Assembly (NCBI GenBank): GCA_964016885.1
Contig: OZ024759.1
Span: 28,768,001 to 28,832,000, forward strand
Reading direction: 5' to 3'
Origin: Eledone cirrhosa
Lineage: Eukaryota
Length of the DNA: 64,000 nt
The first letter of the stretch is position 1, and each line of letters opens with the position of its first letter. This document shows positions 4,929-57,578 of this stretch, piece by piece. Below the pieces are notes generated by a model. The model was given only the letters and a program-made list of their open reading frames with translations, was not told the origin of the DNA and made no database searches. Position numbers and translations under genes: made by a program.

Positions 4929-5003
4929 GCAAGAAGTAAACGGAAACAACCAAGTACAATGAAGAGCTATAATTGCTTAACGACTGATAAAGTAGGAAAA
5001 GTG

Positions 5004-5038
5004 TCTTTACGTTTCGGACAAAGTCCTTCATCGGAAGA
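5004..5038 (-). ncRNA. Minimal type I hammerhead ribozyme (family E), Penelope-pLTR type
   Basis: Minus strand reads TCTT-CCGATGA-A-GGAC-TTT-GTCC-GAAAC-GTA-AAGA: stem I TCTT/AAGA, stem II GGAC/GTCC, palindromic ACGT stem III. Confidence 0.75.
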
Positions 5039-5296
5039 TAAAATTAGAAATAAAATACAACGATAGAGAATTAGAAGGGGAAGGAACGGAAAAAAAAATA
5101 TTGAGAAAAAACGCGCGTGTATTTTCTTAATGTATATATATATATATATACCACCATATATATTTTTTAATTTTATGTTGATCATGCCTTTATATTTAAT
5201 TTCATTTGCACCGTTTCCTCTCACCTCCTTTTTTCTATATGGCTCTCCACCACTCCCCTACACACCCTTGGAACTCTCTTCCCACACACTTTTCAC

Positions 5297-5324
5297 CTGA
5301 AGAAGGTCTTATGCCCGAAACGTC
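5297..5324 (+). ncRNA. Minimal hammerhead motif in a Penelope pLTR-like fragment (about 5160-5416)
   Basis: CTGAAGA-AGG-tcttatgc-CC-GAAAC-GTC, followed by AATAAA and a (TA)n tract; stem I is weak. Confidence 0.65.
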
Positions 5325-6376: not shown

Positions 6377-6548
6377 TATAAATATATATATATATTTAAA
6401 AATTAAACAAGGTTCAATGAATACATCAAAGAATGAGTTTTACAATAGATTGGAAGCACTCAACAGTGAAAAAAAAAAAAAAAGGGTTTCCAGAGTTATT
6501 AATATTAATTCATAATATTAACAAAATAGATATTCTTGTGATTAAGTA

Positions 6549-6615
6549 TATTTTATTATACATATTTCAGAGGTACTGAGTTAAGTTTAACAGTACGTCA
6601 TCGTCAGATAAAATA
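6549..6615 (-). ncRNA. Type I hammerhead ribozyme (family A, left arm)
   Basis: Minus strand reads TATTTTAT-CTGACGA-tgacGTACTG...CAGTACctct-GAAA-TATGTA-TA-ATAAAATA. Confidence 0.7.
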
Positions 6616-6723
6616 GGATGATGCATGACATACCCTGACATAGTAGATGGTTAATCACTACCATGGTTGAACAATGATTGAATCTTAACCATCTACTATG
6701 TCAGGGTATGTCATACATCATCC

Positions 6724-6790
6724 TATTTTATCTGACGAGGACGTACTGTTAAACTTAACTCAGTACCTCTGAAATATGTATAATAAAATA
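6724..6790 (+). ncRNA. Type I hammerhead ribozyme (family A, right arm)
   Basis: TATTTTAT-CTGACGA-GGAcGTACTG...CAGTACcTCT-GAAA-TATGTA-TA-ATAAAATA; 8-bp stem I. Confidence 0.75.
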
Positions 6791-6970
6791 TACTTGATCA
6801 CAAGAATATCTATTTTGTTAATATTTTGAATTTATATATATGTATATATATATATATATATAGGAACGAGTAGGACCCAGAATGCTGAGCTCTTGTTTTT
6901 TTTCCCCAAAAAACAAGATGGCGTAGGACAGAACAAAGGAGAGGCACAAAAACAAAGAAAACAATCCCCA

Positions 6971-12317: not shown

Positions 12318-12321
12318 GTTA

Positions 12322-12512
12322 TTAGCAGTATCGGTAGAGCGTTGGACGTCATGCTTTCTAACATAGTTACGTCATTTTACGGTCTGAGTTCAATTCTCGT
12401 CGAGATTAACTTTGCCTTTCATCCTTACGGGGTCGATAAAATAAAGTACCAGTAATGTACTGGGTAATTGCTGGCCTTGTGCCAAAAGTAGAAACAATTA
12501 TTATTATTATTA
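12322..12512 (+). mobile_element. SINE (Nin/Deu-like family)
   Basis: GCAGTATCGGTAGAGCG head, GAGTTCAATTC B box, conserved body, TTA tail. Confidence 0.85.
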
Positions 12513-16049: not shown

Positions 16050-16242
16050 TTCTTGTTTCTACTTTTGGCACAAGGCCAGCAATAACCCAGTACATTACTG
16101 GTACTTTATTTTATCGACCCGGTAAGGATGAAAGGCAAAGTTAACCTCAGCGGGATTTGAACTCAGAATGGCAAGGGCCGTAACTCTATGCGTCAAAGCA
16201 TGGCGTCCGACCCTCTACCGATACTGCCAATCCACCACCCTT
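16050..16242 (-). mobile_element. SINE (Nin/Deu-like family)
   Basis: Reverse complement of the 47510-47700 type, with an (AAT)n tail to its left. Confidence 0.85.
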
Positions 16243-16383
16243 TATTTAATAATAATGATTTCTTTATTGACCACAAGGGCTGACATCAAGAAAAACATCA
16301 CAGACGGAACAGGACGGTACGATGTGGGTTTTGTGCGTGTAAATAATAATAATAATTGTTTCTACTTTTGGCAGAAGGCTAGC

Positions 16384-21837: not shown

Positions 21838-21876
<39 letters not shown>

Positions 21877-21879
21877 CAA

Positions 21880-21985
21880 GCTCCGATGAACTGACTTGTT
21901 ATAACTTTGTATTGGCGATCGAGTAACGTGAAAATAAGCGGGTAGCGATCTCTAGACCTAGCAGTTCAGAGAAACAATTGTCAGC
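21880..21985 (+). ncRNA. Hammerhead motif with a long stem II insert
   Basis: GCT-CCGATGA-ACTG...CAGTtcaga-GAAA-CAATTG-TC-AGC; flanked by (TA)n on both sides. Confidence 0.6.
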
Positions 21986-22041
21986 AATGAGATTAAAAAC
22001 CTTTTTTGTATAGCAAACCGTGTCACTCTTCTTTCGCGATT

Positions 22042-22076
<35 letters not shown>

Positions 22077-27440: not shown

Positions 27441-27520
27441 GGCATATTAACATACGGCACTTCTTGGGGTATTTTAAAAACCTGGCAGAACCCATTTCCT
27501 CTGCATGTCTAAAGATATTG

Positions 27521-30500
27521 AGTGATACAGAGAAGGAGAGTGATACAGAGAAGGGGAGTGATACAGAGAAGGGGAGTGATACAGAGAAGGAGAGTGATAC
27601 AGAGAAGGGGAGTGATACAGAGAAGTGGAGTGATACAGAGAAGGAGAGTGATACAGAGAAGGAGAGTGATACAGAGAAGGAGAGTGATACAGAGAAGGAG
27701 AGTGATACAGAGAAGGAGAGTGATACAGAGCAGGAGAGTGATACAGAGAAGTGGAGTGATACAGAGAAGGAGAGTGATACAGAGAAGGAGAGTGATACAG
27801 AGAAGGGGAGTGATACAGAGAAGGAGAGTGATACAGAGAAGTGGAGTGATACAGAGAAGGAGAGTGATACAGAGAAGGAGAGTGATACAGAGAAGGGGAG
27901 TGATACAGAGAAGTGGAGTGATACAGAGAAGGGGAGTGATACAGAGAAGTGGAGTGATACAGAGAAGGGGAGTGATACAGAGAAGTGGAGTGATACAGAG
28001 AAGGAGAGTGATACAGAGAAGGAGAGTGATACAGAGAAGGAGAGTGATACAGAGAAGGAGAGTGATACAGAGCAGGAGAGTGATACAGAGAAGTGGAGTG
28101 ATACAGAGAAGGAGAGTGATACAGAGAAGGAGAGTGATACAGAGAAGGGGAGTGATACAGAGAAGGAGAGTGATACAGAGAAGTGGAGTGATACAGAGAA
28201 GGAGAGTGATACAGAGAAGGAGAGTGATACAGAGAAGTGGAGTGATACAGAGAAGGGGAGTGATACAGAGAAGTGGAGTGATACAGAGAAGGGGAGTGAT
28301 ACAGAGAAGGGGAGTGATACAGAGAAGGGGAGTGATACAGAGAAGGAGAGTGATACAGAGAAGGGGAGTGATACAGAGAAGGGGAGTGATACAAAGAAGG
28401 GGAGTGATACAGAGAAGGAGAGTGATACAGAGAAGGAGAGTGATACAGAGAAGGAGAGTGATACAGAGAAGGGGAGTGATACAGAGAAGGAGAGTGATAC
28501 AGAGAAGTGGAGTGATACAGAGAAGGAGAGTGATACAGAGAAGGGGAGTGATACAGAGAAGTGGAGTGATACAGAGAAGGGGAGTGATACAGAGAAGGGG
28601 AGTGATACAGAGAAGGGGAGTGATACAGAGAAGGGGAGTGATACAGAGAAGGAGAGTGATACAGAGAAGGAGAGTGATACAGAGAAGGAGAGTGATACAG
28701 AGAAGGGGAGTGATACAGAGAAGGAGAGTGATACAGAGAAGTGGAGTGATACAGAGAAGGAGAGTGATACAGAGAAGGGGAGTGATACAGAGAAGTGGAG
28801 TGATACAGAGAAGGAGAGTGATACAGAGAAGGGGAGTGATACAGAGAAGGGGAGTGATACAGAGAAGGGGAGTGATACAGAGAAGGAGAGTGATACAGAG
28901 AAGGAGAGTGATACAGAGAAGGAGAGTGATACAGAGAAGGGGAGTGATACAGAGAAGGAGAGTAATACAGAGAAGGGGAGTGATACAGAGAAGGGGAGTG
29001 ATACAGAGAAGGGGAGTGATACAGAGAAGGGGAGTGATACAGAGAAGGAGAGTGATACAGAGAAGGGGAGTGATACAGAGAAGGGGAGTGATACAGAGAA
29101 GGGGAGTGATACAGAGAAGGAGAGTGATACAGAGAAGGGGAGTGATACAGAGAAGGAGAGTGATACAGAGAAGGAGAGTGATACAGAGAAGGAGAGTGAT
29201 ACAGAGAAGGAGAGTGATACAGAGAAGGGGAGTGATACAGAGAAGGAGAGTGATACAGAGAAGGAGAGTGATACAGAGAAGGGGAGTGATACAGAGAAGG
29301 GGAGTGATACAGAGAAGGGGAGTGATACAGAGAAGGAGAGTGATACAGAGAAGGAGAGTGATACAGAGAAGGGGAGTGATACAGAGAAGGGGAGTGATAC
29401 AGAGAAGGGGAGTGATACAGAGAAGGAGAGTGATACAGAGAAGGAGAGTGATACAGAGAAGTGGAGTGATACAGAGAAGGAGAGTGATACAGAGAAGGGG
29501 AGTGATACAGAGAAGTGGAGTGATACAGAGAAGGAGAGTGATACAGAGAAGGGGAGTGATACAGAGAAGGAGAGTGATACAGAGAAGTGGAGTGATACAG
29601 AGAAGGAGAGTGATACAGAGAAGTGGAGTGATACAGAGAAGGAGAGTGATACAGAGAAGTGGAGTGATACAGAGAAGGAGAGTAATACAGAGAAGGAGAG
29701 TGATACAGAGAAGTGGAGTGATACAGAGAAGGAGAGTGATACAGAGAAGGAGAGTGATACAGAGAAGGAGAGTGATACAGAGAAGTGTAGTGATACAGAG
29801 AAGGAGAGTGATACAGAGAAGGAGAGTGATACAGAGAAGGAGAGTGATACAGAGAAGGAGAGTAATACAGAGAAGGAGAGTGATACAGAGAAGTGGAGTG
29901 ATACAGAGAAGGAGAGTGATACAGAGAAGGAGAGTGATACAGAGAAGGAGAGTGATACAGAGAAGTGGAGTGATACAGAGAAGGAGAGTGATACAGAGAA
30001 GGAGAGTGATACAGAGAAGTGGAGTGATACAGAGAAGGAGAGTGATACAGAGAAGTGGAGTGATACAGAGAAGGAGAGTAATACAGAGAAGGAGAGTGAT
30101 ACAGAGAAGTGGAGTGATACAGAGAAGGAGAGTGATACAGAGAAGGAGAGTGATACAGAGAAGGAGAGTGATACAGAGAAGTGGAGTGATACAGAGAAGG
30201 AGAGTGATACAGAGAAGGAGAGTGATACCGAGAAGGAGAGTGATACAGAGAAGGAGAGTAATACAGAGAAGGAGAGTGATACAGAGAAGTGGAGTGATAC
30301 AGAGAAGGAGAGTGATACAGAGAAGGAGAGTGATACAGAGAAGTGGAGTGATACAGAGAAGGAGAGTGATACAGAGAAGGAGAGTGATACAGAGAAGGAG
30401 AGTGATACAGAGAAGGAGAGTGATACAGAGAAGGAGAGTGATACAGAGAAGGAGAGTGATACAGAGAAGGAGAGTAATACAGAGAAGGAGAGTGATACAG

Positions 30501-31028
30501 AGAAGGAGAGTGATACAGAGAAGGAGAGTGATACAGAGAAGGAGAGTGATACAGAGAAGTGGAGTGATACAGAGAAGGAGAGTAATACAGAGAAGGAGAG
30601 TGATACAGAGAAGGAGAGTGATACAGAGAAGGAGAGTGATACAGAGAAGTGGAGTGATACAGAGAAGGAGAGTGATACAGAGAAGGAGAGTGATACAGAG
30701 AAGGAGAGTGATACAGAGAAGGGGAGTGATCAGAGAAGGAGAGTGATACAGAGAAGGAGAGTGATATAGAGAAGGAGAGTGATACAGAGAAGGAGAGTGA
30801 TACAGAGAAGGAGAGTGATACAGAGAAGGGGAGTGATACAGAGAAGGAGAGTGATACAGAGAAGGAGAGTGATACAGAGAAGGAGAGTGATACAGAGAAG
30901 GGGAGTGATACAGAGAAGGAGAGTGATACAGAGAAGGAGAGTGATACAGAGAAGGAGAGTGATACAGAGAAGGAGAGTGATACAGAGCAGGAGAGTGATA
31001 CAGAGAAGGGGAGTGATACAGAGAAGGA
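27521..31028 (+). repeat. 18-bp minisatellite AGTGATACAGAGAAG(GAG/GGG/TGG), about 195 units
   Basis: Continuous array; a 1-nt deletion near 30730 shifts the phase. Confidence 0.98.
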
Positions 31029-34195: not shown

Positions 34196-34235
<40 letters not shown>

Positions 34236-34243
<8 letters not shown>

Positions 34244-34923
34244 GATAAGCAGAACAAGCAAAATTCAACCAATTTTTAAAAATAAATTAAAAAATATAAT
34301 TTAAATATTTACCTATCCATTTCGCCCTTACCGATCGGTTTCGCTTTGTAAAACACCAGAAATCCAATGGATTTCTAATGGAAAATCAAAGTTCATCAGA
34401 GAAGCATTTTCCTTTCCTGGGGCTAAAGACCCAGGAACGATAAAATATATCGCCATCCGCCAGCTAGCACAGATCTAATGAGGTCGAAAAGTGACCCGTA
34501 CGTGAACCAGTCCGAAGTAAAAGCGGGAAAAAACATAGACGTGCTGTCTATCTTACTACTAAAAATAGCAGCTAAATAGAACAACAGATTTGTTCTCTAC
34601 ATAACGGAGAATAATAAAAGAAGTTAATATGCCCAAGGGTACTAAGTACCCTGGAAATATATAGGTTGTCTATGATTCAAGGTTGTTCTATGGTATTAAT
34701 TTGACATACCAGAACTATAATATTAAGATAAGCAGAACAAGCAAAATTCAACCAATTTTTTAAAATAAATTAAAAAATATAATTTAAATATTTACCTATC
34801 CTTTTCGCCCTTACCGATATAATTCTGGTATGTCAAATTAATACCATTGAACAACCTTGAATCATAGATAACCTATATATTTCCAGGGTACTTAGTACCC
34901 TTGGGCATATTAACTTCTTTTAT
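34236..34923 (-). mobile_element. Penelope/retrozyme-like element: 483-bp unit, partial tandem copy and inverted arm, within (TA)n
   Basis: Direct repeat 34236-34335 = 34719-34818; inverted repeat 34614-34719 / 34818-34923; contains a hammerhead. Confidence 0.85.
34325..34403 (-). ncRNA. Type I hammerhead ribozyme with extended stem II
   Basis: Minus strand reads TTCT-CTGATGA-aCTTTG..ATTAGAAATCC-att-GGATTTCTGGT..CAAAGc-GAAA-CCGATCGG-TA-AGGG. Confidence 0.8.
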
Positions 34924-34939
34924 ATATATATATATATAT

Positions 34940-34991
<52 letters not shown>

Positions 34992-34995
<4 letters not shown>

Positions 34996-35140
34996 GGCTT
35001 CTGCAGAACTAGAACTGTTTTATTCAGGAGAAATCATCAGGAAACCCTGCAGAAGCCATTTCTATATTAAATATTTATACTCTGCTATGTATTGAGTACT
35101 TTACTTACTGTGGTTTCCTCCGATTGAACCCCGAATAAAC
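34992..35140. mobile_element. Family F element with fold-back and a mutated hammerhead (minus strand, 34996-35046)
   Basis: Inverted repeat AAATGGCTTCTGCAG/CTGCAGAAGCCATTT; minus strand GGTTTC-CTGATGA-tTTCtcctGAAt-AAAAC...GAAGCC; tail GTATTGAGTACTTT as in family B. Confidence 0.7.
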
Positions 35141-47305: not shown

Positions 47306-47703
47306 AGGGAGGTAGATTGGCAGTATCGGTAGTGGGCCGGACGCCATGCTTTGCAGCATAGAGTTACGGCTCTTTACGGTCTGAGTTCAAATCCTGCTGA
47401 GGTCAACTTTGTCTTTCATCCCTACGGGGGTCGATAAAATAAAGTACCAGTAAGACACTGGGGTAATTGCTGGCCTTGTGCCAAAAGTAGAAACAATTAT
47501 TATTGTTGTTAGGGAGGTGGATTGGCAGTATCGGTGGAGGGTCGGACGCCATGCTTTGCAGCACAGAGTTACGGCTCTTTACGGTCTGAGTTCAAATCCC
47601 GCCGAGGTCAACTTTGCCTTTCATCCTTACGGGGGTCGATAAAATAAAGTACCAGTAATACACTTGGAGAAATTGCTGGCCTTGTGCCTAAAGTAGAGGG
47701 AAT
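47306..47703 (+). mobile_element. Two head-to-tail full-length SINEs (Nin/Deu-like family)
   Basis: AGGGAGGT.GATTGGCAGTATCGGT...GAGTTCAAATCC...GTAGA at about 47306-47505 and 47510-47703. Confidence 0.92.
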
Positions 47704-48036
47704 TGTTGTTATAGTTATTGTCATTGTAATTGCTATTTGTCACATATATTTAGATATTGTCGCTATTTAAACGGTGTCCCCAGTAGTGGTGGTCGTGCTG
47801 GGGTTGTTATTGTTGGGGTGTGGGGGAGGTTGGGCTTGGCGTTGTGTCTTTTTGTTATTTTTTTTTAATTTAGGGTCTTTCCCTGTGAATTTGTTTTTCT
47901 CTATTTCTTCTGGTTTGGGGTTTTAGTTTCCAAGGTTTTCACAAACGTTTGTTGTCGTCGTTGTCGTCGTTGTTGTTGTTATGTGTTATACGTATTGTTC
48001 TAGATGTAATGAAATTACAGTTTTAGGTATAGAGTT

Positions 48037-50186: not shown

Positions 50187-50191
50187 GAAAT

Positions 50192-50237
50192 GGCTTCTAC
50201 TAGAACTGTTTCATTCAGGAGAAATCAACAGGAAGCC
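50192..50237 (-). ncRNA. Hammerhead motif (family F) with one core change
   Basis: Minus strand reads GGCTTC-CTGTTGA-tTTCtcctGAAt-GAAAC-agttcta-GTA-GAAGCC; 6-bp stem I. Confidence 0.65.
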
Positions 50238-50241
50238 TTCA

Positions 50242-50281
<40 letters not shown>

Positions 50282-50329
50282 CAGAATGAAGAGTAACATG
50301 GTCGGCTGTACAACAAGGGGCTTTATTTC

Positions 50330-50444
50330 AAGTAGTAACAATTGTTTCATTGATCAGGTGAGTCTAAAGGCCGCTAATCACTCGAAGTTGCGTCACTCGA
50401 CCTCCAATACAGTGTTTACCTCTGATCAAATCCTCAGAAAACTT
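50330..50444 (-). ncRNA. Hammerhead motif with a long stem II
   Basis: Minus strand reads AAGTttt-CTGAGGA-t-TTGATCAG...CTGATCAA-t-GAAA-CAATTG-TT-actACTT; in a (TA)n-flanked island 50278-50450. Confidence 0.7.
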
Positions 50445-56583: not shown

Positions 56584-57376
56584 AGAAATCTAGCTGTCGA
56601 AACGGCCGAAGCTCAGCCGTCGTTGTCCTGAATCTTTTTATATTTATATATATATATATATATATATTGAAGAAGAAGAAGAAGAAGAAGAAGAAGAAGA
56701 AGAAGAAGAAGAAGAAGAAGAAGAAGAAGAAGAAGAAGAAAAAGAAAGAAAGAAAGAAAAGAAGAATCAGCAAGAAATGGAAACAAAACTGAAGAGGAAA
56801 AACAACAACAACAACAACAAGCTGAAGGTAAAAGGAGAGCAACTAGGTAATGTTAAAATGGCGGCAATCATGTGATGTGTCCTGACATCTCTGATAGATT
56901 GCTGAACGTTTGATGAAGAATTGGCAAGTGTTTTAATCTTTGCCATCTTCCACCATTTCTTCTCGTTTTACGTTCGTTATACCATCATCACCAACGCCAT
57001 CATCACCAACGCCATCATCACCATCGCCATCATCATCATCATCACCATCATTATTATCGCCATCATCATCATCACCATCACCATCATCATTATCGCCATC
57101 ATCATCATCATCGCTTTCACCCTTTCCTACGTCTCCACACTCACGGACACACTCGCACATACATGTATGTTTGTGTGTGTGTGTCTCTCTCTCTATATAT
57201 ATATGTGTGTGTGTGTAATATATATTATATATATATATATATGTGTGTGTGTGTAATATATATATTATATATATATATATGTGTGTGTGTGTAAGTAATA
57301 ACAAAATTAACAAAACTAACTGCACAGTACGTGTAAGAAATATATTAGTTTAACGCTTGAAATAGGAGGAAGAGAG

Positions 57377-57417
57377 TCTTAACGTAACGTTTCGGATAGT
57401 AGTCCTTCATCAGAAGG
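57377..57417 (-). ncRNA. Type I hammerhead ribozyme (family E) with a 5-nt duplication in stem III
   Basis: Minus strand reads CTT-CTGATGA-A-GGA-ctacta-TCC-GAAA-CG-tta-CG-TT-AAG; flanks are homologous to 4975-5122. Confidence 0.75.
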
Positions 57418-57578
57418 TAGAGTTAGAAATAGAAGATAAATAGAAAATAAAGAGTGATGAGAGGAAGGAACAAGTAAAATGAAAAAAAAATTGGGGAGAA
57501 AAAAAACACACGTGCGTATTCAGTCAGCCATCTTATATATATTAATATATATATAGATATTCTTTTAATGTTGCAAAA

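Follow-up and report, generated by a model that had tools for sequence, protein, structure and literature searches.

A non-coding hammerhead repeat within (TA)n whose architecture suggests twin priming by a Penelope-like retrotransposon

The DNA of the window, by which we mean the whole 64,000-nt stretch of Eledone cirrhosa sequence that was analysed, is eukaryote-like and rich in microsatellites. Within it lies a non-coding repeat of 687 nt that contains a hammerhead motif, is embedded in (TA)n, and combines a partial tandem with an inverted arm. The features of the locus are given below in window coordinates; X1, X4, X5 and X8 denote public sequencing runs, and PLE denotes Penelope-like retrotransposons.

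34198 to 34236, no strand: left (TA)n target remnant, in which TATA at 34233-34236 is microhomology with the element.
34237 to 34818, minus strand: long arm of 582 nt (1.2 units); the RNA sense is minus, and the plus strand would be the cDNA primed at the left TA end.
34237 to 34328, minus strand: AT-rich hairpin from the ribozyme cut to the proximal end, which lies 92 nt 3′ of the cut and is the putative RT start site 1.
34325 to 34403, minus strand: type I hammerhead of the PLE type (motif scan, shuffles, covariation), predicted GUA cut at 34329/34328.
34404 to 34452, minus strand: hairpins 5′ of the ribozyme, with coverage above that of the middle of the unit in 3/3 organism A runs.
34453 to 34614, minus strand: non-coding body of ~160 nt, occupying the place of the ORF of an autonomous PLE; at least one related copy departs from it (depth; loose end at 34432 in X4).
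34615 to 34719, minus strand: "tail", direct copy, 105 nt, the interval between two recurrent ends; 2 X4 contigs start at ~34615, one with (TA)n before it.
34329 to 34811, minus strand: cut-to-cut unit of 483 nt, 34.8% GC, a candidate retrozyme monomer.
34716 to 34818, minus strand: partial upstream copy (pLTR) with the hairpin, the 3′ strand of stem I, GUA and half of the palindrome, without the catalytic core.
34817 to 34819, no strand: head-to-head junction with a 1-nt overlap (T34818), where the stem III palindrome has its centre.
34818 to 34923, plus strand: inverted arm, tail only, putatively a second cDNA from the right TA end that began at RT start site 2 and went no further than start site 1.
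34922 to 34992, no strand: right (TA)n target remnant, a (TA)n run.

The initial annotation described a 100-bp direct repeat with a period of 483 bp, followed by a 105-bp inverted copy of the adjacent internal sequence, the whole lying in (TA)n, and this description was borne out in each part. The direct repeat spans 103 nt (34233-34335 and 34716-34818, period 483) with 2 mismatches, and its first 4 nt are common to the (TA)n run. The inverted arm is the reverse complement of 34719 to 34614 over 106 nt with 3 mismatches (34822, 34848 and 34869), and (TA)n flanks the element on both the left and the right. On the minus strand, the cut-to-cut unit is well folded (z −5.6) and is 65% paired as a circle. 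Because the 3′ hairpin (34237-34328) folds on the minus strand (−15.9 kcal/mol) and hardly on the plus strand (−1.4 kcal/mol), the RNA sense was assigned to the minus strand. When read as RNA, the long arm and the short arm together make up one contiguous 687-nt stretch of tandem sequence.

No ORF encoding the RT and GIY-YIG of an autonomous PLE was found, the longest ATG ORF in the doubled unit being 42 aa, and a Pfam search in 12 frames gave no match at the cut-off. Pattern scans of metagenome and viral contigs returned 0 matches, no tRNA was found in the window, and a sigma-70 scan was set aside as irrelevant for a eukaryote. On the minus strand, an 82-nt GT...AG stretch (34715-34796) has its pyrimidine tract in the 3′ hairpin and its acceptor at the proximal end site; it is a possible intron of the PLE type, and no spliced joint across it was among the joints listed from the 4 runs.

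The minus-strand hammerhead consists of CUGAUGA (34399-34393), GAAA (34342-34339) and a palindrome (34339-34330), next to which the predicted GUA cut falls between 34329 and 34328. Stem I has 4 bp, stem II has 5 bp and a further hairpin in loop II, and stem III is the 10-nt palindrome. In a stricter scan, the motif at 34325 to 34403 was the sole exact-core match in the window. Markov shuffles of the non-simple sequence yielded 0.01 exact-core matches per shuffle, and equally strong matches were seen in 0 of 200 shuffles. These results place a minus-strand type I hammerhead beyond chance. A hammerhead-like string near 34470 of the plus strand failed the motif scans. The Rfam search of the window gave no match at the gathering thresholds and no ribozyme family among its 8 weak matches, of which those to MIR841 were far below the cut-off and merely reflect the long inverted repeat. 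Because Rfam offered no ribozyme match, the ribozyme call rests on the motif scan together with covariation. As to the latter, C to T at 34332 and G to A at 34337 have equal support (4 X1 contigs, 5 X4 contigs and 15/41 X8 reads), and with both changes the palindrome stays perfect. Similarly, A to T at 34361 with T to A at 34373 preserves the loop II hairpin, and C to T at 34356/34357 converts G·U pairs to A-U on the minus strand. Judged by these variants, the ribozyme motif is a conserved RNA structure, for which cleavage is only predicted.

The motif resembles the PLE hammerhead variants described in PMC4209133 in its short helix I, its longer helix II, the A after position 9, and the small palindromic helix III suited to dimers. 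It differs from them in the extra hairpin in loop II and in the absence of the G10.1-C11.1 pair of PLE minimal hammerheads: positions 10.1 and 11.1 are A·C instead of the usual G-C, and 34392 carries no variant among the 40 of 181 variant rows listed. In computed folds, the active fold is 5-13 kcal/mol less stable than the minimum, and the palindromic stem III gives −16.6 kcal/mol as a 10-bp homodimer versus −0.9 kcal/mol as a hairpin. The locus holds one complete ribozyme, the second copy being without a catalytic core. Cutting of the upstream remnant by the downstream core through a 6-bp stem III, possible on paper at ~13 kcal/mol above the minimum, was rejected; a pseudoknot-free fold that takes in the inverted arm blocks it. 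According to the computed fold, the upstream site would be trapped by a duplex of 106 bp in any transcript that spans the locus from end to end. With one catalytic core and an arm pair that would trap the upstream site, this copy is therefore probably dead.

The initial annotation regarded the partial tandem and inverted pLTR as a PLE-type insertion, and both features are indeed present. A partial tandem, an adjacent inverted copy, a tail and a (TA)n bias are described as standard for PLEs (PMC8557442, PMC8969392, PMC6765202). Like the PLE insertions described in PMC8557442, PMC3846280 and PMC11167929, the element has a partial tandem, an adjoining head-to-head inverted copy and a (TA)n target, as well as two recurrent ends, a repeat that contains a hammerhead, and termini ~90 nt 3′ of the cut. 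In contrast to these insertions, it has a 160-nt body without an RT or GIY-YIG ORF; its tail is 105 nt long, whereas those of the described PLEs are 30-40 nt; and its inverted copy consists of the tail alone and abuts the 3′ end, whereas the PLE copies described overlap the 3′ end. The element is also similar to the animal non-LTR retrozymes reported in PMC7229834 and bioRxiv 10.64898/2026.07.22.740005, which are non-coding, carry a type I hammerhead and have a GC content below 45% (here 34.8%), and which are strongly self-paired, multi-copy and presumed to be mobilised by PLEs. Its unit of 483 nt, however, exceeds the 170-400 nt of PMC7229834, while falling within the 51-972 bp of bioRxiv 10.64898/2026.07.22.740005; its ribozyme, with a 4-bp stem I, follows the PLE type and not the canonical one; and circles in this family are hypothetical. 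The earlier suggestion that this is a whole retrozyme monomer holds in that the full, well-folded cut-to-cut sequence of 483 nt (34329-34811) is present, but with its one complete ribozyme the locus falls outside the definition of an active retrozyme by two ribozymes (bioRxiv 10.64898/2026.07.22.740005). Non-LTR retrozymes have been argued in the same preprint to be non-autonomous PLE derivatives. In short, PLEs commonly have this architecture, and non-autonomous PLE derivatives that bear a ribozyme have already been published.

Relatives of the element were collected with 34255-34765 as the query at 82% likeness from 4 of the 10 public runs listed, which returned 593, 32, 7 and 872 records. 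The related sequence stems from runs of organism A, among them X1, X4 and X8, with small shares in three other organisms; the shares in runs X5-X7 are small, X5 being from organism B. All 29 bins of the unit were covered in 3/3 organism A runs and in all identity bands, and divergent contigs span every internal join of the unit, including that of tail to body (X1 record 7). The element belongs to a non-coding family of many copies, in which variant contigs number in the hundreds. The 7 records of X5 fall mostly on the AT-rich stretch, and the two across the ribozyme (depth 2-2.5) are too thin for a claim about range. Joints that go back 475-484 (n=4) were rejected as proof of a tandem, as they follow from the rotation of the query, and the X8 end peaks at 34285, 34298, 34701, 34748 and 34757 are likely fixed RAD read ends. 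Hundreds of X8 RAD reads match just 34559-34611 (50 nt, gapped) and then pass into unlike sequence, which might reflect chance or a distant relative. The locus itself carries several near-private changes.

The inverted junction was absent among the 6 joints listed from the 4 runs, as it would be if the inverted arm were an assembly artefact derived from a fold-back read, or a later local rearrangement. We consider this most improbable. The arms differ at 3/106 nt, one difference being a real family allele, and the inverted arm ends in a (TA)n junction of its own. Moreover, G34419 is missing from 14/14 X1 contigs covering that position, and the locus is therefore probably not in run X1.

If the ends of the insertion were defined by hammerhead cleavage, as had been proposed, then breakpoints would be expected to cluster at the ribozyme. 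The results support neither. The left outer end lies 92 nt and the right outer end ~197 nt 3′ of the cut, and other copies end at these same places. Copies adjoin (TA)n at 34716-34720, the equivalent of the proximal end: (TA)n precedes 34720 in 1 X4 contig and 34716 in 61 X8 reads, the latter with a (CA)n(TA)n flank unlike that of the present locus and perhaps from one locus. The distal end recurs with (TA)n before ~34615 in 1 X4 contig, and a second X4 contig begins at 34615; this recurrence thus amounts to 2 contigs of one run, from the 24 of 133 loose ends listed. The cut was the end in 0 of these 24 and in 0 of the 5 molecule-end places listed. A drop in X1 depth near 34310-34330 was discounted as clustering at the cut, as it begins before the cut and is missing in X4 and X8; the AT-rich stretch also draws organism B contigs. 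All 4 hammerhead motifs of the window sit 62-92 nt upstream of (TA)n. The two recurrent ends are 105 nt apart, with few contigs behind them, compared with the 30-40 bp of described PLE tails.

These distances recall the anole PLE, for which PMC11167929 reports that RT starts internally, 111-118 nt into the ORF, with the ribozyme cut at nt 26, so that the RT start lies 85-92 nt past the cut. The same study describes extension of both target strands, a tail that is the interval between two start sites, uncleaved RNA as the dominant substrate, insertion in vitro that was unchanged by ribozyme mutations, and a PLE protein predicted to be a dimer.

One hypothesis, which we favour with moderate confidence, is that the element is a non-autonomous passenger of a Penelope-like retrotransposon and that this copy was twin-primed from an uncleaved tandem transcript. 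At the (TA)n target, both strands would be cut by a PLE protein provided in trans. Priming by one TA end at the internal start site 2 (34614) would yield 105 nt, synthesis stopping on meeting start site 1 (34719/34720), and priming by the other TA end at start site 1 would yield 582 nt, a cDNA that traverses one ribozyme and enters stem III of the next one upstream. A head-to-head join with a 1-nt overlap would then unite the ends of the two cDNAs. Such a template would have been at least 687 nt long (1.42 units) and uncut at both GUA sites. The inner end of the arm abuts the start of the long arm in tandem register without a gap (34719 = 34236 + 483), which would occur by chance in ~1% of cases, and the two inverted pieces are contiguous on the template (34719 abuts 34720), as twin priming demands. 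Contiguous inverted pieces, with one cDNA stopping where the second began, make up the twin-priming geometry described for L1 in PMC2837659, which the locus also resembles in having microhomology at both target ends and little at the inner junction. The locus differs from L1 in having no poly(A) and no deletion between the pieces, and both primings would be internal; in addition, with (TA)n as the flank on either side, the target duplication is unreadable. The analysis found neither a target duplication nor a source tandem nor an autonomous partner, and a search of titles and the starts of abstracts found no link between twin priming and the mechanism of PLEs.

Alternatively, as the initial annotation had it, the inverted arm might stem from a single cDNA that, having gone beyond one unit, changed template to the adjacent sequence or folded back onto it. 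The best point of that annotation is that the second copy stops within the palindromic stem III, ~7 nt from the predicted cut. This was confirmed: the copy passes the equivalent cut by 7 nt (34812-34818) and halts at the symmetry centre of the palindrome (3% by chance), a stop for which the twin-priming reading gives no reason. Self-priming at palindromes has been proposed for inversions of rotifer PLEs (PMC3846280), and on the arm diagonal there is pairing of 34810-34813 (4 bases) with 34724-34727, a point against the twin-priming reading that a fold-back could use. However, the DNA strand has no fold there (−4.9 kcal/mol, z −0.3) and its end is unpaired near 34719, the hairpin being stable on the RNA strand only. 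With 98 nt between the arms there is no short-loop snap-back, the arm has a common allele other than that of the direct copy, and its outer end matches an end found among the other copies. Twin priming fits better than a fold-back switch, in that the arm is exactly the tail interval and ends where the long arm begins, and we regard the fold-back as improbable.

The twin-priming reading leaves the question of the template, which is intact across both GUA sites (34329 and 34812) and was therefore either an uncleaved tandem transcript or a ligated circle. In the latter case, the same two primings would have taken place on a 483-nt circular RNA produced by hammerhead cleavage and ligation, a true retrozyme cycle, and the long cDNA would have gone 1.2 times round. 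PMC4209133 and PMC7229834 propose such a cycle. In its favour, the cut site is passed twice by the cDNA, stem III is, judged by the variants in the runs, under selection, and the unit is 65% paired when folded as a circle and, at the family level, closes on itself. On a circle, however, the long cDNA must displace the short cDNA as well as its own start, yet the short cDNA could not pass start site 1. The high energy of the active fold (5-13 kcal/mol above the minimum), the missing G10.1-C11.1 pair, and the indifference of in vitro insertion to ribozyme mutations (PMC11167929) also speak against it. Furthermore, one circle predicts identical tails at insertion, and the tails differ at a common polymorphism: at 34689 the arm has A and the direct copy has T, both being common family alleles (A in 119/176 X8 reads and 9 X1 contigs). 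The allele difference therefore weakly favours a tandem transcript over one circle. Its chance probability is ~4% when the 4 best-supported tail alleles are counted and as much as 31% when all 181 variant rows are. Mutation after insertion would yield about as many differences as are seen (5 in 209 nt), a number that also fits the age of the locus. We consider the circle unlikely. The earlier claim that reverse transcription went more than once round a circular or tandem RNA stands insofar as the template was longer than the unit and intact across the cut twice, and a single circle, although possible, is not favoured. The mechanism of that account is partly supported.

Another scenario is that each target end primed on a separate RNA molecule, the short cDNA having stopped at start site 1 through RT pausing. 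The allele difference would follow directly from this, PMC11167929 predicts a dimeric PLE protein, and for L1 such dual priming is described as inseparable from twin priming (PMC2837659). We think it improbable as well, as the exact abutment would need a separate reason and the typical PLE inverted copies described continue into the pLTR (181 bp in Pen2a, PMC3846280).

Twin priming, as read here, comes from one locus. We put forward only tentatively, as rather doubtful, the stronger statement that the locus is a direct footprint of PLE RT having primed twice, once from either target end, on a single RNA processed by the hammerhead, which may have been a 483-nt circle. If this is true, then the family is a natural test set for the origin of PLE tails and inversions, the formation of which is called unresolved in PMC8557442, and also for whether retrozymes move through circles, circle-templated movement being still a hypothesis. 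The value of the locus is mechanistic. A family this short permits a genome-wide test of arm ends and of the alleles shared by duplicated segments, which would separate the twin-priming, fold-back and rolling-circle models, and the clean two-primer geometry and the long tail make that test easy.

The window contains further repeats. Adjoining the main element, 34993-35140 is a short repeat embedded in (TA)n with 15-bp inverted ends at 34993-35060 and a relative at 50189-50237. Another inverted insertion of the PLE type is likely at 5008-5034 (minus) and 5297-5324 (plus), where two minimal hammerhead motifs on opposite strands stand head to head, at a distance of 80-91 nt upstream of (TA)n in each case; a 73% relative of 4962-5071 lies at 57335-57448. 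The short element at 21875-22045 (plus strand) lies between (TA)n runs and has a hammerhead motif with a CCGAUGA core and a palindromic stem III, a predicted cut after 21982 that is 62 nt from TA, and the same A-after-core layout as the hammerhead at 34325 to 34403; its 69% relative is at 50254-50411. A near-perfect palindrome (93%) of 336 bp with a short loop (6502-6837) ends in (TA)n and is of the snap-back inversion type, unlike the main element. An 18-bp satellite of 195 copies with 94% matches (27520-31028) is open in long reading frames, and a dispersed repeat of ~200 bp has many copies in the window (47306-47717, 16053-16263, 12321-12512 and others), once as a tandem pair.
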